Notes: generated by a model not told the origin, from the sequence alone. Shown: positions 1,107 through 9,405, numbered from the stretch's first letter. The stretch is 10,299 nucleotides of DNA from Crocosphaera sp. (GCA_030064955.1 JASJDW010000142.1:1-10299), one strand, 5' to 3'. Program-made: numbers and translations.

Positions 1107-1355
1107 ATGGATGCCTTTAGTCCCACACCTCCACCCTGGACAGAAACTGCTGTTCATGGGCTACAATTCTGTTGCCCTCGTTGTCATTCTACTGCGAATA
1201 AAGCCCAAAAAGCTTGGATCAATCGACAGGCCCCCGTTATAACTGAAGACTATGGCCGCCGATGGCAAGAATTTTATTTGTGTGAATGTGAACAAGCATG
1301 GTGGGCCTGGAGTAGCGATCGCCCCCCTTCTGATCTCAACAGCAACAAAGGATAG
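1107..1355 (+). CDS. Small four-Cys (CCxxC ... CxC) zinc-ribbon-like hypothetical protein, 82 aa
   Basis: The ORF is intact and visibly more GC-rich than its neighbours. It has Cys pairs CCPRC and CEC about 35 residues apart, a Trp-rich C-terminal part (WWAWSSDRPP) and an internal HIP1 site. I believe it resembles a conserved cyanobacterial small protein but cannot name a family. Confidence 0.6.
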   Translation: MDAFSPTPPPWTETAVHGLQFCCPRCHSTANKAQKAWINRQAPVITEDYGRRWQEFYLCECEQAWWAWSSDRPPSDLNSNKG

Positions 1356-1520
1356 AATAAAGATTGACACTCCCACCGTTAAGCTATCGCTGTAACGGGG
1401 GATTCTTTGTTCACAGAGGCTACTTGCTTAGACAGGATTTCTCCTATCGTAGTAGAGGTATCCTCTCCCAAAGCGTTTAGACTATCTTGTAGCCAGGTTC
1501 CTGAGTGACCCACAGTACCT
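1346..1520 (-). ncRNA. Predicted TnpB omega (right-end) RNA: a scaffold overlapping the 3' end of tnpB plus a flank-derived guide. Extent is a guess.
   Basis: Placed by analogy with characterised TnpB systems, where the guide RNA is read from the tnpB 3' end through the right end into flanking DNA. A bulged 10-bp hairpin (1371-1401) straddles the tnpB stop codon. There is no direct sequence proof of transcription. Confidence 0.3.
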
Positions 1521-2605
1521 AATCCGAGTTTTAAGATGTTGCGTGCAGCATTTTCATCACGATCTAACTGAGATCCACAAGCACAAATATGAGTCCTTGT
1601 TGAGAGAGATTTCTTGACTTTTTCTCCGCAATTAGAACAGTTTTGAGAAGTGAATTGAGGAGGGACAGCAATTGTTATCTTGCTGTGTTTTTCTCCCAAA
1701 TATTCAAGCCAAAGACGAAACTGATACCAGGCAGCATCATTAATTGATTTAGCTAAACAATGATTTTTAACTAAGTTCTTAATCCTTAAGTCTTCGTATG
1801 CTATCACATCGTTAGAGTGAATTACGCACCTTGCTAACTTCACAGCAAAGTCTTTACGTTGTCTACTTATTTTAAGGTGAGCTTTAGCTAATCTAGCCCG
1901 CGCTTTTCTTTGATTAGAAGACCCTTTCTTTTTTCTAGATAGTCTTCTTTGAAGTCTTTTAAGTTTCTTCTCTCCTTTTCTTAAGAATCTAGGGTTATCA
2001 ATTTTCTGTCCATTCTGGTCAGTGTAGAAGGACTGTAACCCAACATCTAAACCGACTACACTGTTAGCTGGTTCAGTATCTATTTTCACGTCAACAGAGA
2101 GAATGAACTGACAATAGTAGCCATCAGCCCTCCGAATTAGCCTTACCCTTTTAATTGATTCAATGGGGTAAAAGTTTAAATCGTAAGTCCCTACAAGTCT
2201 TACTTTACCAATGTTATTCTTATCTGTAAAAGTAATCGCTTTTCTGGTAGTTAGGTCGAGTTTCCAGCCAGTGGTTTTGTACTCCACAGAACGGCAATTC
2301 TTTTTAAACTTCGGGAAACCCTTTTTCCCAGGAATCTTGCGTTTACAGTTGTCGTAAAAACGAGATATAGCTGACCACGCTCTTTCGGCACTAGATTGCC
2401 TAGCTTGTGAGTTTAGCTGGTTAGCAAAGTCAAAATCATGGGCTAATACACGACAATATTTATTAAGGTCATACTTATTCACTTTTTCATGATCCATCCA
2501 AAAACGCAAGCATTTATTCTGGACAAACTGAGCCGTACGTATGGTCTCATCTATAGCTGTGTATTGATGCTTTTTAGCTCTAACTTTGAACTCTAAAACT
2601 AACAT
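1379..2605 (-). CDS. tnpB: TnpB (OrfB) RNA-guided nuclease / IS605-family accessory protein, 408 aa
   Basis: All RuvC-like motifs are present: VGLDVGLQ (Asp), IAYEDLRIKN (Glu), DRDENAARNI (Asp). The zinc finger CSNCG...HICACG is also present. The N-terminal MLVLEFKVRAK...QYxxIDExIRTAQFVxNKCLRFW is typical of cyanobacterial OrfB proteins. Confidence 0.93.
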   Translation of the reverse strand: MLVLEFKVRAKKHQYTAIDETIRTAQFVQNKCLRFWMDHEKVNKYDLNKYCRVLAHDFDFANQLNSQARQSSAERAWSAISRFYDNCKRKIPGKKGFPKFKKNCRSVEYKTTGWKLDLTTRKAITFTDKNNIGKVRLVGTYDLNFYPIESIKRVRLIRRADGYYCQFILSVDVKIDTEPANSVVGLDVGLQSFYTDQNGQKIDNPRFLRKGEKKLKRLQRRLSRKKKGSSNQRKARARLAKAHLKISRQRKDFAVKLARCVIHSNDVIAYEDLRIKNLVKNHCLAKSINDAAWYQFRLWLEYLGEKHSKITIAVPPQFTSQNCSNCGEKVKKSLSTRTHICACGSQLDRDENAARNILKLGLGTVGHSGTWLQDSLNALGEDTSTTIGEILSKQVASVNKESPVTAIA

Positions 2606-2835: not shown

Positions 2836-5628
2836 ATGCGCTGTTTAAACTGCCACTTGGATAACCTTCCCGAAACTACCCAAACCTGTCCCAATTGTGG
2901 GGCGCAAGTTGTCGCTTTGTTACAAGAAGTGTTACCCCAAGGCACCCAACTGCGATCGCAGACATATTGTCTTGAAGATGCTATGGGGAAAGGCAGTTTT
3001 GGCATTACCTATCGCGCCCATCATACCGCATTAAAGAATCCTGTCGCCATTAAAGAGTTTTATCCCATTGAGTACGTATCTCGAAATATTGAAACCAAAC
3101 TATTAATTATTCCCGAAAAACATCGAGACGCATACAAAAGAAACTTATATCGTTTTTTAGAAGAAGGACAAATATTAGCTAAGCTGAATCATCCCAATGT
3201 AGTTAAAGTTAGGGATTTATTTGAAGAACGAGACACCGCTTACATTGTTATGGAGTTGGTACAAGGAAAAACTTTATTACAAGAATTAGAAAATCAGCCC
3301 AACAAAAAACTAACTCTCGACAGAATAGAAAATTTAATTGGACAATTAGTTAATGCGTTAACTGCCATTCATGAAGCAGGGATTTATCATCTAGATTTGA
3401 AACCCGAAAATATACTCTTAACCCCCAATGATCAATTGATTCTAATTGATTTTGGAGCAGCCACATTAGCCGATGATGCTAAACGAAAAAAGACCCGTTC
3501 TTTTACCGAATGTTATGCAGCCCCAGAAATTATGTCAGGGGGAGAAGTTGGCCCTGAAAGTGATCTATTTGAAGTAGGGATGATTCTTCATGAACTATTA
3601 ACAGGAACCTTGCCACCTCCAGCTATGAAGCGTGTTCTAGAAACCGATATTTGGCAGCCTCAAGGGTTAGAGCATCCTTGGGATATGTTAATCGTTGATG
3701 CGTTAAGAATTCAAAGAATCTATCGCAGTTCCACTGTAGAACAATGGTGGGAACTAAGAAAACAAAAACAAGGAAATAGTATCAACCTTGAACAAAAAAG
3801 CGTTGAAAATTTACAAGGAAAATTTACGCTGCCCTTATTACAACAACAAGGCATGACTCAAAAACTAGGGCGAGGTTGTATTAAAACAGTGATTCCGATT
3901 AATCAAATTCAAGTCTTAGTTTTAGAAGCGGGGGGCGCATCTTTATTCGATGTAAATACTGGTATTATTCCTTGGGAAATTGATTGTCCTACCTCCTGTG
4001 GAGCCATCAGCAAAAATCAAAAAATACTAGCTTTAGTTTGGCAAAAAAATATCTATTTATGGGATTTAACTCAAGGGAAATTTTTGCGACAATTACAAGG
4101 TCATTCAAAAAAAATAACTGACCTAGCGTTTAATCAAGATGGCTCTTTATTACTCTCAGGAAGCCTTGATGAAACCTTAATTATCTGGGACATTCAAACA
4201 GGCAGAAAACGTCACGAACTATCTGAACCGATGGGACGCATCACTGCCGTTGCTTTTAGCGAAGATAGTCAATTTGTTGCCTCTGGTTGCCATAGCGGAA
4301 TTGTGAGAATTTGGGGAGCTATTTCCGGTCAAGAATGGCGATGTTTAGAAGGACACCAAATGGCAGTAGAAACCTTAATTTTTAGCCCAGATAGCAAAGT
4401 ATTAGCCTCTGGCGGACAGGATCAAATCATTCATTTATGGGACGTTACTTCAGGGAAATTGCAACAAGTATTAGAAGGCCATCAAGACTGGATAACAGCA
4501 TTAAATTTTGATAAAACAGCAAGTTATTTAGCCTCTGCATCAGCAATTAATGATAAAACCATTCGTATTTGGTCTGTTGCACAAGGACAACCCACCCAAC
4601 AACTACAGGGTCACAGTAACACCATCCAAGCGATCGCTTTTTGTCCCGATGATCGTTATTTGGTCTCAGCAGCATTAGACAACACTATCCGTCTCTGGGA
4701 CAGAGAAACTGGAAAGGCGATCAAACAACTACAACAACATACCAATTGGGTGTATAGTGTGGCTTGTAGTGGGGACGGTCGTTGGGTGGCGATCGGATAC
4801 AGCGATTGGACGGTACATCTTTGGGATATCATTGAACAACGGGAAGTTAGTTGTCTTGAAGGTCATGAAAGTGCTGTTTCTAGTGTGGCCTTTTGTCCTG
4901 ATAATCAACATCTTATCTCTGGGAGTTGGGATGGAACCCTAAGAGTCTGGGATATTCACACAGGAAAATGTAAACGCATTTTACAGGGTCATCAACACTG
5001 GGTTAGTTGTGTTGCGGTGAGTTCTAATGGTCAATGGGTTGCGTCTGGAAGTTGGGATAAAACTGTTTGTCTTTGGGAGACTACTAATAGTTGGCACCAG
5101 TTTAAAATCAGTAAACCTACTCGTATTTTACAGGGTCATTTAGAAGATATTGAAGGGGTTGCTTTTAGTCCTGATAGTCAATTAATTGCTAGTTCTGGTA
5201 ATGATAAAACCATTAAAATATGGGAAGTTGTATCCGGTCAACAGGTTCAACAATTAGAGGGTCATAAATATAGTGTAGAGGATTTGGTTTTTAGTCCCGA
5301 TGGTCAATTTATTGCTTCAGTTAGTCGAGATAAAACTGTTAGAGTTTGGCACGTTATTTCTGGTAAAGAAATTCATCGATTTCAAGGCCATACCAATTAT
5401 GTTAAATGTGTGGCGTTTAGTTTGGAAGGTCGGTATTTGGCCTCAGGGGGAAAAGATCAAATGATTGCCATTTGGGATTTAATTTCAGGCGAATTAACTC
5501 AATTAATTCAAGGTCATACCAATTGTATTAATAGTATTGCTTTTACTGGGGATGGTTCTTTTTTAGTGTCTGGAGATAATGATGGAGTGGTTCGGTTATG
5601 GAAATTACAGTTAGGAAGCGAGGGTTAG
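2836..5628 (+). CDS. Multidomain Hanks-type Ser/Thr protein kinase: N-terminal CxxC-x11-CxxC zinc ribbon, kinase domain, C-terminal WD40 array (12 clear plus 2 degenerate blades)
   Basis: Kinase motifs seen: G-loop GKGSFGITY, VAIKE Lys, catalytic loop HLDLKPEN (3388-3411), DFG (3448-3456), APE. These are followed by repeated GH-x(23-30)-WD units from about aa 345 to the C-terminus. Confidence 0.93.
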   Translation: MRCLNCHLDNLPETTQTCPNCGAQVVALLQEVLPQGTQLRSQTYCLEDAMGKGSFGITYRAHHTALKNPVAIKEFYPIEYVSRNIETKLLIIPEKHRDAYKRNLYRFLEEGQILAKLNHPNVVKVRDLFEERDTAYIVMELVQGKTLLQELENQPNKKLTLDRIENLIGQLVNALTAIHEAGIYHLDLKPENILLTPNDQLILIDFGAATLADDAKRKKTRSFTECYAAPEIMSGGEVGPESDLFEVGMILHELLTGTLPPPAMKRVLETDIWQPQGLEHPWDMLIVDALRIQRIYRSSTVEQWWELRKQKQGNSINLEQKSVENLQGKFTLPLLQQQGMTQKLGRGCIKTVIPINQIQVLVLEAGGASLFDVNTGIIPWEIDCPTSCGAISKNQKILALVWQKNIYLWDLTQGKFLRQLQGHSKKITDLAFNQDGSLLLSGSLDETLIIWDIQTGRKRHELSEPMGRITAVAFSEDSQFVASGCHSGIVRIWGAISGQEWRCLEGHQMAVETLIFSPDSKVLASGGQDQIIHLWDVTSGKLQQVLEGHQDWITALNFDKTASYLASASAINDKTIRIWSVAQGQPTQQLQGHSNTIQAIAFCPDDRYLVSAALDNTIRLWDRETGKAIKQLQQHTNWVYSVACSGDGRWVAIGYSDWTVHLWDIIEQREVSCLEGHESAVSSVAFCPDNQHLISGSWDGTLRVWDIHTGKCKRILQGHQHWVSCVAVSSNGQWVASGSWDKTVCLWETTNSWHQFKISKPTRILQGHLEDIEGVAFSPDSQLIASSGNDKTIKIWEVVSGQQVQQLEGHKYSVEDLVFSPDGQFIASVSRDKTVRVWHVISGKEIHRFQGHTNYVKCVAFSLEGRYLASGGKDQMIAIWDLISGELTQLIQGHTNCINSIAFTGDGSFLVSGDNDGVVRLWKLQLGSEG

Positions 5629-5683
5629 GAGTCAGGAGTTCCACAGCGAAGCTCCGGCTAAGCGCGAACAGGAGTCAGGAGTT
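5627..5683 (+). repeat. STRR-like element: two copies of AGGAGTCAGGAGTT flanking a 29-nt GC-rich core
   Basis: AGGAGTCAGGAGTT occurs at 5627-5640, overlapping the last two bases of the kinase stop codon TAG (5626-5628), and again at 5670-5683. The core is CCACAGCGAAGCTCCGGCTAAGCGCGAAC. Confidence 0.85.
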
Positions 5684-5715: not shown

Positions 5716-6141
5716 ATGGAACCTTTTACCACTGCAAAAATTCTGGAGTTTGTGGTAGGTGCAGTGATTACAATGGGGGTAGAAAATCTTCCAACTGCCA
5801 CTAAAAAACTCTGGCAAACTATTCGTAACCGTCTGCAAAATCAACCCGTTGCACAAGTAGCGATCGCAGAAATTGAGGAAAATAACTCGCCAGATCAAAT
5901 TCCCAAATTGGCCCCTTTCTTGGAGGTGGAAATGCTGTCTGATGAGACGTTTGAACAACAGGTGCAGCAGTTAGCAAAAGAAGCTATTGAGCAAGATAAA
6001 GAAACAATTAATATTTATGTTGCTAAAGCTGAAAAAAGTACAGTTGTTGGGAAGCAAGAAGCAGAAAATCTAAACAATTATAATGCAGAAACAATTAGTA
6101 ATATTGGCACACAGAATGTTATTAACGTAAAAAAGGAATAG
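5716..6141 (+). CDS. Hypothetical 141-aa protein with a hydrophobic N-terminal helix and an acidic/Gln-rich helical remainder; probably the N-terminal module of the downstream STAND protein
   Basis: The ORF starts MEPFTTAKILEFVVGAVITMGVENL. It ends two codons after an A_AAA_AAG heptamer. The -1 frame is open from there into the NB-ARC ORF. Confidence 0.6.
   Translation: MEPFTTAKILEFVVGAVITMGVENLPTATKKLWQTIRNRLQNQPVAQVAIAEIEENNSPDQIPKLAPFLEVEMLSDETFEQQVQQLAKEAIEQDKETINIYVAKAEKSTVVGKQEAENLNNYNAETISNIGTQNVINVKKE
6129..6135 (+). promoter_or_regulatory. Candidate -1 programmed ribosomal frameshift slippery site A_AAA_AAG (alternatively the site of a 1-nt homopolymer indel)
   Basis: In the 5716 frame the codons are GTA AAA AAG GAA TAG. 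A -1 slip continues GGA ATA GGG ... in the frame of ORF 6267..9008. I could not find an obvious downstream stimulatory stem-loop or an upstream SD-like element. Confidence 0.4.
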
Positions 6142-6266
6142 GGGAAAATGATGTACAACGACTCATAGAATTTTGGCAAGAAAAACCTGATAGGAAAGCG
6201 ACCTTAGCATCAAGTTTAATTACATCGCCTCCTGTTGTTAAACCTTGGGTAGATAGGTTAGAAGAA

Positions 6267-9008
6267 ATGACCACTATTCAAGGTTGGTTTGATGATGCTG
6301 ACGTTAATTTAATGGGTATTGTTGGGTTAGGTGGAATCGGAAAATCTGCCTTAGCTGCGTATTTTTATAATAGATTTTCTCCTTCTCCCACACTCCCCAC
6401 ACCTCCCACACTGCCCACCCTCAAATTCTGGGCTGATGTTAGTTTAAATCCCGATTTTGCTGCTTTTGCTGAATCCATTATTAAGGGTTTATCAGGAACT
6501 TTGAATGCGACGGGTGACGTTAATATTTTAATTGCTGATTTATTCAAGATTTTACATCAACATCGTTGTTTATTGGTGGTGGATAATGTTGAAACTTTGC
6601 TAAACGAATCAGGAGAATGGCAAAGCGAAAATTATACTACCTTTTTCCAGCGTTGGAAGCAACAGGGACACACCAGTATTTTGTTATTGACCACAAGAGA
6701 TAAACCTAACCTTTATCGAGGGAATAATTATTGGTATTCTTTGGGAACTTTCACAGTTGATGAAGGTAAAACTTTATTAAAAGCATTACAAATTGAAGGA
6801 AGTGACAAAGACTTAGAACAATTAGTTACTAAAATAAATGGTCATGCGTTGACCTTAAGATTAGTGGCAGCATACCTCAAAGAATATTGTGATAGTCAAC
6901 TAAGTCAAGTGAGAGAATTGGGGTTAGATGAATTTGAGTTAATTTACGAAGAAGCATCAGGACTCCATCGTCATAAAAACGATGCACGATTATCATGGAT
7001 ATTAGAACAACATTTAACCCGTTTAAGTGAACAACAAAGACAATTTTTAGTTAATTTATCCGTCTATCGTCAACCCTTTGATGTAACAGCAGCAACAGGG
7101 ATGTATATCAATGCTAATTTTACAGAAGGAGAGACAGAAGCAACCATAAAACCCATAGAAGTCAAGAAAGAATTACAAAATTTAGCTAATCGTTCCTTAT
7201 TATCTCGTAGCGATGAAAAAGGTTATGAATGTCCCCTATTACTTAAACCCTATTTACAGAAAAAATATCCCGACTTAACCCAGTGTCATCAAATAGCGAT
7301 TAATTATTATTTATCTATTGTTCCCCCGAAACCCTGGACAAACCTCGATCAGATACAAGGATATTTAGAGATTTTCTATCATTGGTATCAATTAGGAGAA
7401 TATGACACTGCATTTGATTATTTGCGTCATGTTGATGAGTTTATGACCCTTCAGGGATATTATCATCTTCAGGTCAAATATTATTCAGATTTAGTGAGGA
7501 TTTATGAGGAAATAGAAGATCAAAATAATTGGAACTATGCTGCTTCTCTCACTTCTTTGGGGAATGCTTACCAATCCCTGGGACAATATCAACAAGCGAT
7601 ACAACACCATCAACAGTCTTTAGCTATCTTTATAGAAATAGAGAATCGCAACGGTGAAGAGTCTTCCTATGGTAATTTGGGGAATGCTTACTTTTCCCTG
7701 GGAAAATATCAAGAAGCGATAGAATACTATCAACAGTCTTTAGCTATCACCACAGAAATCGGAGATCGCAATGGTGAAGCTAATTCCTATATAGGTTTGG
7801 GGAATGCTTACTTTTCCCTGGGACAATATCAACAAGCAATAGAAGACTATAATAAATCTTTAGCTATCTTTCAAAAAATCGGAGATCGCAAGGGTGAAGC
7901 TAATTCCTACAGTAATTTGGGGAGTGCTTACGATTCCCTGGGAAAATATCAAGAAGCGATAGAATACCATCAACAGTCCTTAGCTATCACCACAGAAATA
8001 GGCGATCGCAATGGTGAAGCTACTTCCTATATAGGTTTGGGGATTGCTTACCGTTCCCTGGGAAAATATCAAGAAGCGATAGAATACTATCAACAGTCCT
8101 TAGCTATCCAAACAGAAATCGGCGATCGCAACGGTGAAGCTAATTCCTATGGTAATTTGGGAAATGCTTACTCTTCCCTGGGACAATATCAAGAAGCGAT
8201 AGAATACCATCAACAGTCCTTAGCTATCACCACAGAAATAGGCGATCGCAATGGTGAAGCTAATTCCTATATAGGTTTGGGGAATGCTTACTCTTCCCTG
8301 GGACAATATCAACAAGCGATAGAATACCATCAACAATCTTTAGCTATCCAAACAGAAATCGGCGATCGCAACGGTGAAGCTAATTCCTATATAGGTTTGG
8401 GGAATACTTACTCTTCCCTGGGACAATATCAACAAGCGATAGAATACTATCAACAGTCTTTAGCTATCACCACAGAAATCGGCGCTCACAATGGTGAAGC
8501 TAGTTCCTATAATAATTTTGGGAATGTTTACTATTTGCTGGGACAATATCAACAAGCGATACAATACTATCAACAGTCTTTAGCTATCACCACAGAAATC
8601 GGCGCTCACAATGGTGAAGCTACTTCCTATATGGGTTTGGGGAATGCTTACCGTTCCCTGGGACAATATCAACAAGCAATAGAATACTATCAACAGTCCT
8701 TAGCTATCAAAAGAGAAATCGGCGATCGCTATGGTGAAGCAAATGCTTGGTTTAACTTAGGATTAACATTAAAGAAATTAAACCGTAAATCAGAAGCAAA
8801 AGAATGTTATCAAAAATCTCGTCAATTATATCAAGTAATGGGACTGGATCGAGATGTTCAAGACTGTAACAACCAACTCATCAAACTACAACGAGGATGG
8901 TTAGAAAAGATTTTTTATTTTATCTTAGGAGTGATTAAGTTTCCTGTTGCGTTAGTTGTGTTTGTTTTGCTCAAAGTTTGGGAATGGATTAGAAAAATGA
9001 TTCATTAG
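6267..9008 (+). CDS. STAND NTPase: NB-ARC domain plus about eleven 40-aa TPR repeats plus a C-terminal hydrophobic tail. The annotated ATG is probably not the true N-terminus, because the frame is open from 6126.
   Basis: Motifs seen: Walker A GLGGIGKS (6324-6347), Walker B LLVVDNVE (Asp at 6582), LLLTTRD, GHALTL (GxP-like). The TPR units have consensus GEAxSYxxLGNAYxSLGQYQQAIEYxQQSLAIxxEIGDRN. The tail is IFYFILGVIKFPVALVVFVLLKVW. Confidence 0.9.
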   Translation: MTTIQGWFDDADVNLMGIVGLGGIGKSALAAYFYNRFSPSPTLPTPPTLPTLKFWADVSLNPDFAAFAESIIKGLSGTLNATGDVNILIADLFKILHQHRCLLVVDNVETLLNESGEWQSENYTTFFQRWKQQGHTSILLLTTRDKPNLYRGNNYWYSLGTFTVDEGKTLLKALQIEGSDKDLEQLVTKINGHALTLRLVAAYLKEYCDSQLSQVRELGLDEFELIYEEASGLHRHKNDARLSWILEQHLTRLSEQQRQFLVNLSVYRQPFDVTAATGMYINANFTEGETEATIKPIEVKKELQNLANRSLLSRSDEKGYECPLLLKPYLQKKYPDLTQCHQIAINYYLSIVPPKPWTNLDQIQGYLEIFYHWYQLGEYDTAFDYLRHVDEFMTLQGYYHLQVKYYSDLVRIYEEIEDQNNWNYAASLTSLGNAYQSLGQYQQAIQHHQQSLAIFIEIENRNGEESSYGNLGNAYFSLGKYQEAIEYYQQSLAITTEIGDRNGEANSYIGLGNAYFSLGQYQQAIEDYNKSLAIFQKIGDRKGEANSYSNLGSAYDSLGKYQEAIEYHQQSLAITTEIGDRNGEATSYIGLGIAYRSLGKYQEAIEYYQQSLAIQTEIGDRNGEANSYGNLGNAYSSLGQYQEAIEYHQQSLAITTEIGDRNGEANSYIGLGNAYSSLGQYQQAIEYHQQSLAIQTEIGDRNGEANSYIGLGNTYSSLGQYQQAIEYYQQSLAITTEIGAHNGEASSYNNFGNVYYLLGQYQQAIQYYQQSLAITTEIGAHNGEATSYMGLGNAYRSLGQYQQAIEYYQQSLAIKREIGDRYGEANAWFNLGLTLKKLNRKSEAKECYQKSRQLYQVMGLDRDVQDCNNQLIKLQRGWLEKIFYFILGVIKFPVALVVFVLLKVWEWIRKMIH
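7561..8760 (+). repeat. Ten in-phase 120-bp tandem DNA repeats encoding the TPR units, with no indels and high nucleotide identity
   Basis: Units start at 7561, 7681, 7801, 7921, 8041, 8161, 8281, 8401, 8521 and 8641. For example, 8161-8280 versus 8281-8400 differ at 9 of 120 positions by my count, and 7981-8040 versus 8221-8280 differ at 1 of 60. More degenerate units flank the array on both sides. Confidence 0.95.
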
Positions 9009-9190
9009 GGTTGAGGAATTTCTAAATCTCTACAAATTTTGCGGACTAAAAACTCATTAATTTCTCGATGTCTTGGAATCGCTGACACTTTTTGAACCAT
9101 TCGATTAACATAGATTGTATGATTTCCTCCTTCTCGAAGAAACTCGCATCCATTGACTTCTAAATGCTTAATTAAATCTCGTCTTTTCAT
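9005..9190 (-). CDS. hicA: HicA-family type II toxin (mRNA interferase), 61 aa
   Basis: The sequence MKRRDLIKHLEVNGCEFLREGGNHTIYVN...SAIPRHREI matches the HicA/YcfA pattern, including the conserved GxxH and IPRH segments. Its start codon overlaps the hicB stop. Confidence 0.85.
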   Translation of the reverse strand: MKRRDLIKHLEVNGCEFLREGGNHTIYVNRMVQKVSAIPRHREINEFLVRKICRDLEIPQP

Positions 9191-9405
9191 TACCCTGATA
9201 CAGTTAGGGTTTCTCTAATAACATCCATTCCTTGAATAGATTCTTCTGCTAACATTCGATTAGCTTCTAAGACTAAATCTATTGCTTCTAATAAATTACT
9301 TCTCGCTTCCTCTAGGGTTGTTCCTTGAGTGTTTGCACCTGGTAATTCTTCAACAAAAGCAATATAACCTTCTGGAACCTTTTGAAAAATTGCTGTTAAC
9401 TGCAT
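9190..9405 (-). CDS. hicB: HicB-family antitoxin, short form (UPF0150-like fold only), 71 aa
   Basis: The sequence MQLTAIFQKVPEGYIAFVEELPGANTQGTTLEEARSNLLEAIDLVLEA is the typical HicB N-terminal domain. It is coupled to hicA through a TAATG overlap at 9188-9192. Confidence 0.8.
   Translation of the reverse strand: MQLTAIFQKVPEGYIAFVEELPGANTQGTTLEEARSNLLEAIDLVLEANRMLAEESIQGMDVIRETLTVSG

Follow-up and report, generated by a model that had tools for sequence, protein, structure and literature searches.

A Bell/NLR module of Crocosphaera sp. whose two reading frames are probably joined by programmed −1 ribosomal frameshifting

Introduction

In a stretch of 10,299 nucleotides from Crocosphaera sp. 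(GCA_030064955.1 JASJDW010000142.1:1-10299; the whole stretch is called the window hereafter), a short open reading frame (ORF1, 5716-6141, plus strand) runs into a long one that lies in another frame of the same strand (ORF2, 6126-9008) and encodes an NB-ARC NTPase with an array of tetratricopeptide repeats (TPR). The locus raises the question of whether a small protein and a NOD-like receptor (NLR) are encoded here by two genes, or whether ribosomes reach the receptor frame from within the first one. The available comparisons make it probable that the locus is a Bell/NLR regulated-cell-death module, likely serving in anti-phage defence or another conflict, and that its parts are joined by programmed −1 frameshifting and are not two genes.

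The window comes from a metagenome-assembled genome (MAG), and ORF1 is 100% identical to a protein annotated in a Crocosphaera sp. MAG. The zero-frame product of ORF1 has 141 residues and ends, in frame, with GTA AAA AAG GAA TAG (stop TAG at 6139-6141). ORF2 is in the −1 frame relative to ORF1; its first ATG is at 6267, although the frame is already open from 6126 and stays open for 960 codons, covering a linker, the NB-ARC domain, the TPR array and a C-terminal hydrophobic segment that is a putative anchor. The overlap of the two frames amounts to 13 nt. No promoter-like or terminator-like sites were found between ORF1 and the NLR ORF, and an Rfam scan of the window returned no family. Joining ORF1 and ORF2 at an A_AAA_AAG heptamer (6129-6135) gives exactly 1097 amino acids in three parts, as a first-pass annotation of the locus had proposed when it read the two ORFs as one protein.

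A slippery heptamer conserved at the junction

The heptamer A_AAA_AAG at 6129-6135 (plus strand) lies one codon ahead of the ORF1 stop and is in phase with this ORF. The 13-nt overlap contains no other in-phase heptamer of the X_XXY_YYZ type, and A_AAA_AAG is proposed here as a −1 ribosomal frameshift site. This heptamer and G_GGA_AAG are both among the most shift-prone in E. coli, according to tests with dnaX and synthetic constructs (recoding review, PMC5009743). Related loci, given below by L numbers (and related proteins by P numbers), have one or the other of them. Among the Crocosphaera loci, A_AAA_AAG is present in the window, L001/L004, L002/L005, and L007, and G_GGA_AAG in L003, which is the cultured-strain genome of C. 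chwakensis CCY0110, and in L006; together with the distant L016 and L017, four loci use G_GGA_AAG. The distant members with the same arrangement (L008, L009, L010, L011/L012, L013/L014, L016, L017, and L019/L020) were predicted beforehand from the KK or GK ends of their short proteins, and every predicted member that was examined bore this out; such ends occur in 12 of the 51 representative Bell clusters found with the window’s profile (about a quarter). Several loci are short metagenomic contigs, and near-duplicate contigs are included among the 18 slip-site loci (L004, L005, L012, L014, and L020).

When these loci are taken as nine lineages, the Crocosphaera clade being one, that are less than 50% identical to one another, A_AAA_AAG or G_GGA_AAG is present in 9/9, the heptamer is fixed at its synonymous sites in all nine, and the slip-site layout is conserved down to ~25% identity. 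Eleven loci (the window, L001-L003, L006-L011, and L013) have exactly one in-phase heptamer each, within overlaps of 7-70 nt, and the heptamer and stop were found likewise, by inspection, in L016, L017, and L019. In all slip-site loci, the zero-frame stop follows 0-1 codons after the heptamer and the ORF of the STAND protein (signal transduction ATPase with numerous domains) goes on in the −1 frame. The −1-frame stop of L007 abuts the heptamer, so in this locus the shift is possible nowhere else. As a control, L018, in which the Bell protein ends in VSF, has neither a heptamer nor a −1 continuation. Of the features that mark a programmed −1 frameshift, an in-phase heptamer, a conserved site, and a downstream ORF dependent on the shift are all present, whereas a stimulatory element is not seen in the window. 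It had been suggested in the first-pass annotation that a frameshift site might set the stoichiometry of the N-terminal module relative to the full-length protein; this idea now appears to be the strongest point of that annotation, given the conservation of the slip site in nine lineages.

The sequence upstream of the first ATG

The stretch at 6135-6266 (plus strand), between the heptamer and the first ATG of ORF2, would be translated as a part of the shifted product. The 44 codons preceding ATG 6267 are open, and the other two frames contain 3-6 stops. Codons were compared in pairs among the window, L001, L002, and L003, L007 being left out for a one-codon indel. Of the substitutions in 6135-6266 between the window and L003, 3/0/9 affect codon positions 1/2/3, the changed codons being synonymous in 7 cases and non-synonymous in 3. 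The stretch includes a conserved motif ahead of the P-loop, SSLITSPPVVKPWVDRLEE (6210-6266), the pattern of which, SS.LIT.PP....W..R.EE, is kept in loci where the DNA is saturated (L009, L011, L013, L016, and L017). By these comparisons, the stretch is judged to be evolving as coding sequence. No ATG, GTG, or TTG occurs between the slip site and the P-loop in L011 and L013, and no Met in L009. In the databases, NLR homologues have their annotated starts at arbitrary points inside this conserved motif, which suggests that the starts are systematically miscalled.

The N-terminal module belongs to the Bell family

The N-terminal module of ORF1 had been left unassigned in the first-pass annotation, as a candidate for a new effector or adaptor domain. 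Profile links to a published set place it in a known kind of effector instead, the Bell family (Dyrka et al., 2020; 10.1101/2020.01.06.895854). Bell proteins adjoin NLR-like genes in Cyanobacteria and Actinobacteria, and their C-terminal amyloid signalling motif (BASS) recurs at the N-terminus of the NLR (Dyrka et al., 2020). In a preprint on the Bab/Agp system (10.1101/2024.11.07.622273), a conserved N-terminal ‘MEPIS’ motif and a helix 1 cupped by four helices were described, and antiphage as well as membrane activity was measured for the Bell-like protein Bab; the experimental support for membrane targeting and cell-death execution by Bell domains comes from Bab in E. coli alone.

The domain of the window’s protein covers residues 1-107 (5716-6036, plus strand). 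The sequence begins MEPFTTAKILEFVVGAVITMGV, with an MEPFT start and an acidic residue at position 2-3, as in MEPIS-type starts. AlphaFold2, run with a 56-sequence alignment, predicts five confident helices within residues 6-107 (6-20, 27-39, 44-56, 59-75, and 77-107; predicted local distance difference test, pLDDT, >90), followed by an Asn/Gln-rich tail at residues 109-141 that is disordered in the model (pLDDT <50). The hydrophobic first helix (residues 6-20, nt 5731-5775) and the disordered, Asn-rich tail that had been read from the translation are both seen in this prediction.

The close homologues of the module are all Crocosphaera ORFs of 116-141 amino acids, apart from P0014. The latter (266 amino acids, partial, Crocosphaera sp.) has Bell residues 1-103 joined in frame to the TPR region of the NLR, with tail, slip site, and NB-ARC deleted, and appears to be derived by recombination. 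In an exhaustive profile search, 61 representative clusters were obtained, almost all of them of 90-180 amino acids, and the wider profile gave 509 clusters at 90% identity, which are cyanobacterial ‘hypothetical proteins’ of ~135-140 amino acids without a Pfam domain. Most members of the family start with MEPxT, MDPxT, or a similar sequence and continue with a hydrophobic helix; an acidic residue and then Pro within residues 1-7 were counted in 113/169 members of 110 to 199 amino acids. The profile A1, made from Crocosphaera N-module sequences only, finds small proteins with BASS10 tails (P0019 at 2.2e-16 and P0022 at 1.9e-12), and the profile A2, made from the wider family alignment, finds P0160 of Pseudanabaena sp. 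SR411 at 1e-32, whose tail is identical to the one that Table S2 of Dyrka et al. (2020) gives for the Bell protein OYQ65653.1. Carriers of published BASS8 and BASS10 tails are among the relatives found with the window’s profile. Bell proteins are recognized as proteins of 120-140 amino acids collinear with an adjoining NLR and only rarely forming its N-terminus, and this is what the lengths, the neighbour genes, and the fused protein P0049 described below show. The assignment of the ORF1 module to the Bell family is therefore firm.

The Bell family is absent from Pfam. At E up to 10, Pfam gives no family for ORF1 or its N-module and no consistent family for the 56 members of the family alignment, and the PADLOC models do not match ORF1. 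HetE-N was rejected as an identity of the module, being a stray match at 0.003 in one family member only. RuvC (NCBIfam) was likewise rejected for the window’s proteins (18 bits against a cutoff of 100), all NCBIfam matches being sub-threshold noise, and BAK, the top row of the Foldseek comparison with a probability of 0.06, was treated as chance. The position of the module agrees with the effector role attributed to it earlier: in two related NB-ARC modules, P0192 and P0194, this N-terminal place is taken in frame by a trypsin or caspase domain.

A tail with tentative BASS10 character

The disordered tail (residues 98-141, 6007-6138, plus strand) contains a weakly BASS10-like core, TVVGKQEAEN (nt 6040-6069). 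In the MAFFT alignment A2, it shares columns with BASS10-type tails. A hidden Markov model (HMM) of BASS10, for which the four instances of Table S2 in Dyrka et al. (2020) alone were used, matches the tails of several family members at 2.6e-14 to 1e-5 and that of a frameshift-type relative, P0075, at 5.8e-4. For the window’s tail, the E value is 1.9 and, after iteration, 0.04-0.13 (residues 109-118), and 3/1000 shuffles score equally well. The weak likeness is the reason why the motif assignment is tentative while the domain assignment is firm. The disorder in the AlphaFold2 model would be compatible with an amyloid motif, of which it is no demonstration.

In L018, the gene next to the Bell gene begins 198 nt later and has a BASS10-like N-terminus. 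In the window, no local alignment of the tail with the first 108 residues of the −1 ORF was obtained, that is, no copy of the tail motif was detected at the N-terminus of the NLR. For an NLR without its own tail motif, sharing of the motif would be possible only via the frameshift fusion.

The NTPase, the sensor array, and the C-terminal segment

The NB-ARC NTPase lies at 6267-6881 (plus strand; PF00931, 39.6 bits against a cutoff of 23.5, E 4.6e-10), with the Walker A sequence GLGGIGKS at 6324-6347 and the Walker B sequence LLVVDNVE readable directly in the translation. Just after the helix of the P-loop (Walker A), there is a Pro/Thr-rich insert made of an 18-nt tandem unit, PSPTLPTPPTLPTL (6385-6422, plus strand). 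In the orthologues L001, L002, L003, and L016, this insert is absent, longer, or Ser/Pro/Ala-rich, and it appears to behave like a variable microsatellite within the NTPase.

The TPR sensor array follows at 7524-8840 (plus strand), where Pfam places 11 TPR_12 stretches. Its core at 7556-8744 consists of ten 40-residue units with a period of 120 nt (9.9 copies, 86% matches), and the variation between the repeats is concentrated at ~6/40 positions. The number of repeats also varies between orthologues, in which the −1 ORFs have 959, 923, 972, and 630 amino acids. The description of the array as ‘hypervariable’ in the first-pass annotation is justified insofar as the repeats are nearly identical and vary at a few sites. 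Near the end of ORF2, a hydrophobic segment of ~23 residues, IFYFILGVIKFPVALVVFVLLKV (8910-8978, plus strand), has a mean Kyte-Doolittle score of 2.5 over 19 residues. The segment, with its FPFALV core, is conserved in L001-L003, P0049, P0183, P0188, P0189, and P0191. It is probably a membrane tail anchor, and its conservation suggests a tail-anchored, membrane-resident NLR.

The Pfam matches to NB-ARC and TPR_12 support the layout of an effector, a STAND NTPase, and a repeat sensor that had been noted before. The likeness to Avs proteins proposed along with it did not hold: the PADLOC search of ORF2 gave generic TPR models only and no Avs model. The NLR of the window fits better among the NLR-like proteins of the NB-ARC/TPR type that cyanobacteria have as partners of Bell effectors.

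Other states of the junction in relatives

The survey of homologues of the N-module, which had been proposed with the first annotation, found adjoining STAND ORFs in relatives and also showed that the module is not always encoded apart from them. P0049 has both the N-module and the NB-ARC domain in a single ORF of 658 amino acids. This ORF lacks the Asn/Gln tail and aligns collinearly with the conceptual fusion (33% identity, E 4e-99). A word-indexed protein search with the conceptual fusion gave 15 matches, with no fused protein besides those with a swapped effector, and provides no estimate of how frequent fusions are.

In L021:2479-3060 (Aerosakkonema sp. BLCC-F183) and L022:2515-3060 (Argonema galeatum), both recorded under named taxa and with no MAG label, the Bell and NB-ARC/TPR ORFs are in the same frame and separated by one TGA. 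The context is CAC TGA C, the NB-ARC ORF resumes directly after the stop, and the start annotated for the NLR, a GTG, falls within the conserved WVGRK motif. This arrangement looks like stop-codon read-through in place of the −1 frameshift and would constitute a second route to a short and a long product. Selenocysteine at this UGA is considered unlikely, cyanobacteria being generally not known to have the machinery, although no search for a SECIS element was made.

The slip site is also found with another type of NTPase. L019:1525-4859 and L020:610-3944 encode a Bell protein with the C-terminus EKKL, which is followed, after A_AAA_AAG, by an nSTAND1 domain (PF20703) and pentapeptide repeats in the −1 frame; the NTPase start set by the gene caller is ~250 nt too late and lies downstream of the NPYKGLLYFDEEDSDRYFGRE stretch. 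Since the STAND protein here is nSTAND1 and not NB-ARC/TPR, the slip site travels with the Bell module. The junction accordingly takes four forms: the genes can be separate, with a paired motif, a −1 slip site or an in-frame UGA can lie between them, or the two parts are truly fused.

A model of the module and the alternatives to it

The following model is proposed for the window. Most ribosomes would stop at 6141 and release a free 15-kDa Bell protein, made of the five-helix membrane-targeting domain and the disordered, BASS10-like tail. A minority would slip back one base on A_AAA_AAG (6129-6135) and produce the protein of 1097 amino acids, comprising Bell domain, tail, NB-ARC, TPR array, and C-terminal anchor. 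Binding of a ligand by the TPR array would lead to oligomerization of the NB-ARC domain, by which the N-terminal Bell and tail modules would be clustered. The clustered modules might form a pore themselves, or they might act as a nucleus and recruit the excess of free Bell protein through the shared tail; either would result in membrane damage. The production of both proteins and their ratio, the templating by the tail, the membrane activity, and the trigger are what we infer in this model.

Several observations weigh against it. The evidence for both protein products is comparative throughout, and the resemblance of the window’s tail to BASS10 is weak (E 0.04-1.9). The Foldseek comparison of the AlphaFold2 model with the PDB returned nothing below E 2.8, and the profile search of PDB sequences nothing below E 0.28, so no relative of the Bell module with a solved structure was identified by either. 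The Crocosphaera clade has a conserved ATG 19 codons before the P-loop, at the point where the Pfam NB-ARC match begins, and NCBI annotates the window’s NLR from this codon at 6267 (P0181, 913 amino acids). In L011, L016, and L017, the NLRs have further frame breaks or truncation; their −1 NB-ARC ORFs end early, after 239-319 amino acids (L011:1505-2308, L016:4408-5367, and L017:852-1571), the rest being in another frame or missing. These extra breaks mean that part of the Bell-NLR family may be decaying, or the three loci may contain further recoding or assembly errors. Finally, no stimulatory RNA was seen: the fold downstream of the window’s heptamer is less stable than that of shuffled sequences (z +1.5), and the consensus fold 3' of the heptamer reaches −6.4 kcal/mol with almost no covariation. 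L013, a Tara Oceans contig, has the sole strong hairpin among the loci (L013:931-971, −20.4 kcal/mol, z −4.4), which starts 8 nt after A_AAA_AAG and is a possible frameshift stimulator, absent from the window. Our guess is that the lack of stimulatory RNA in the window would agree with shifting at low efficiency and with a short product made in large excess.

A serious alternative lies within recoding itself. The shift could be real and the long fusion alone functional, as a resistosome-like pore former, with frameshifting serving to keep a toxic receptor scarce; the free Bell protein would then be a by-product or a decoy inhibitor and not a recruited effector. This proposal is considered unlikely, though it deserves attention. 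P0049 is a single fused ORF without the tail, and Avast2 as well as several bNACHTs, which are NLRs with tested antiphage activity, share an N-terminal region of the Bell/Hell type (Bab/Agp preprint, 10.1101/2024.11.07.622273); the amyloid character of the window’s tail is not established either, given the weak BASS10 scores. However, the recoded members keep a conserved tail, homologous to those of Bell proteins with a BASS, which the in-frame fusion no longer has (a comparison with a single fusion, n=1). A weak start would suffice to keep the receptor scarce, and the short product is a complete and conserved Bell protein, comparable with the free effectors of the classical pairs.

The second alternative, which we regard as improbable, is an ordinary Bell/NLR pair of two genes, with ORF1 translated independently of an NLR that initiates at ATG 6267 and with a heptamer devoid of function. 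It is more readily conceived for the window's locus by itself than for the relatives. It agrees with the NCBI start of P0181, with the conservation of this ATG in the Crocosphaera clade and the beginning of the Pfam match there, and with the fact that classical Bell/NLR pairs are usually collinear and often overlapping. However, it does not account for the 44 upstream codons that are open and evolve as coding sequence, or for the conservation of the motif before the ATG in distant relatives and the fixed synonymous sites of the heptamer in nine lineages. L011 and L013, which have no start codon before the P-loop, are left unexplained, and the database starts are scattered arbitrarily within a conserved motif. 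In addition, such an NLR would have no N-terminal copy of the Bell tail motif, which is needed for signalling in the classical pairs.

Very improbable, in our estimate, is slippage of RNA polymerase on the A-run, or phase variation of the homopolymer at the DNA level, in place of an event on the ribosome. The A_AAA_AAG loci do hold runs of 6-7 A, and transcriptional slippage is known in bacteria (PMC5009743). However, four loci have G_GGA_AAG, with only three G and three A, and two have an in-frame UGA; besides, none of the slip-site loci (0/18) is in the ‘ON’ (in-frame) state, which would not be expected under phase variation. A pseudogene, or an assembly or sequencing indel in the homopolymer, is hardly credible: the window is from a MAG and L011, L016, and L017 have extra frame breaks, but independent assemblies and lineages, the cultured C. 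chwakensis CCY0110 (L003) among them, show the frame change at one and the same codon, and the heptamer is always canonical and in phase, with the downstream ORF intact for 959 codons.

A broader proposal can also be made, which we hold as tentative and somewhat less likely to be right than wrong. Recoding may be a family-wide rule in the cyanobacterial Bell-STAND clade, with one mRNA giving free effector and fusion in a fixed ratio. The rare fusion would act as a ligand-triggered nucleus to which the excess of free effector is drawn via the shared tail, and this would replace the duplicated amyloid motif of the two-gene Bell/NLR systems. Under this proposal, and with the same reservation, the ratio would be set by a −1 shift at X_XXA_AAG or, in some lineages, by UGA read-through.

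Relation to known systems

The window shares with the classical Bell/NLR pairs and with Bab/Agp a Bell protein of 120-140 amino acids that has an MEP-type start, is hydrophobic in helix 1, and carries a short motif at its C-terminus. As in the classical pairs, the locus is cyanobacterial, and the Bell gene is collinear with, and immediately upstream of, an NB-ARC/TPR NLR with TPRs that are highly conserved internally. In those pairs, however, the NLR is made separately, from a start of its own, and has a copy of the motif at its N-terminus, whereas the window’s NLR ORF has no copy of the motif. Here, ribosomes would get into the NLR frame from the Bell ORF at a conserved −1 slip site or, in L021/L022, across a UGA.

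G_GGA_AAG is the shift site between genes G and T of phage lambda. We know of no stimulator identified for lambda G-GT. Lambda G/GT and E. coli dnaX have heptamers identical to those found here and give short and long products with a common N-terminal part, and the lambda site, like that of the window, lies close to the short ORF's 3' end. Unlike in the window, the proteins are unrelated to the ones described here, which have a probable immune or cell-death function, and no stimulator is evident in the window. Related retroviral genes reach the same ratio of Gag to Gag-Pol either by −1 frameshifting or by stop-codon read-through, and the −1 loci and L021/L022 mirror these two solutions; Gag-Pol being a viral polyprotein, this is an analogy only, with no homology. 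In lambda, low-level −1 frameshifting fixes the G:GT ratio at ~30:1, which is important for assembly (PMC5009743).

Avs/AVAST and bNACHT proteins resemble the window’s product in having an N-terminal effector, a STAND NTPase, and a C-terminal repeat sensor, and a conserved N-terminal region of ~15 residues in Bell and Hell domains is shared by Avast2 and several bNACHTs (10.1101/2024.11.07.622273). Unlike Avs, the window encodes an NB-ARC NTPase with canonical TPRs that would be expressed via recoding, with a separate short product. Fungal HET-S/NWD2, the resistosomes of plant CC-NLRs (ZAR1), and MLKL follow a shared logic, in which an NLR activates an α-helical membrane domain and an N-terminal helix is released. 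For HET-S/NWD2, activation occurs by amyloid templating from a motif on the NLR (10.1101/2020.01.06.895854; 10.1101/2024.11.07.622273). No sequence or structural similarity to HET-S/NWD2, ZAR1, or MLKL was detected with Pfam and Foldseek, so the resemblance is functional and drawn from the literature.

A full-text literature search found no report of recoding in these Bell/NLR genes, and the word ‘frameshift’ is absent from Dyrka et al. (2020) and from the Bab/Agp preprint. Relative to the literature found, we regard the Bell module as belonging to a known family and the recoding-coupled Bell-NLR architecture as a novel version of a known type. To our knowledge, only a few programmed frameshifts have been described in cellular, non-mobile bacterial genes, namely dnaX, prfB, copA, and csoS2. 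If the proposal is true, the locus would be the first case of programmed recoding in a prokaryotic NLR-type immune gene and would open a large new set of cellular −1 frameshift genes, a conserved slip site and its read-through variant linking a cell-death effector to an NLR-type receptor in many cyanobacteria. Recoding would also account for the truncated, arbitrary starts that these NLR genes routinely receive in annotations, and screens that demand a motif at the annotated NLR N-terminus would probably miss the recoded loci. The proposal provides a testable model of how the stoichiometry of effector to sensor can be fixed in an immune module, comparable to lambda G/GT and Gag/Gag-Pol.

Neighbouring genes

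Upstream of the Bell ORF and on the same strand, a gene at 2836-5628 encodes a Ser/Thr kinase of 930 amino acids fused to at least 12 WD40 repeats; it ends 88 nt before the Bell ORF, with no promoter-like or terminator-like site between the two. The kinase domain matches the PADLOC kinase models mad6 and PD-T4-6. The order of the kinase-WD40 gene and the Bell gene is kept in L001-L003 (85-86% identity) and not in the distant loci. In the spacer between them (5627-5683), a 14-nt sequence, AGGAGTCAGGAGTT, occurs twice, 43 nt apart. Further upstream, an IS200/IS605-type TnpB (1379-2605, minus strand; OrfB_IS605 and a Cas12f-like TNB domain) lies beside a Cys-rich ORF of 82 amino acids (1107-1355, plus strand) that matches no family.

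On the other side, a HicA toxin/HicB antitoxin pair (9005-9405, minus strand) is convergent with the NLR, the HicA ORF overlapping the NLR stop by 4 nt. A HicAB pair is also present in L001, and another one near the NLR of L022. The segment 9517-10175 contains an ORF of 143 amino acids with a faintly HigA-antitoxin-like C-terminus, which neighbours the NLR in L002 and L003 as well, and then a gene for a DUF2283 protein; with these two, the neighbourhood is rich in genes of the toxin-antitoxin type.

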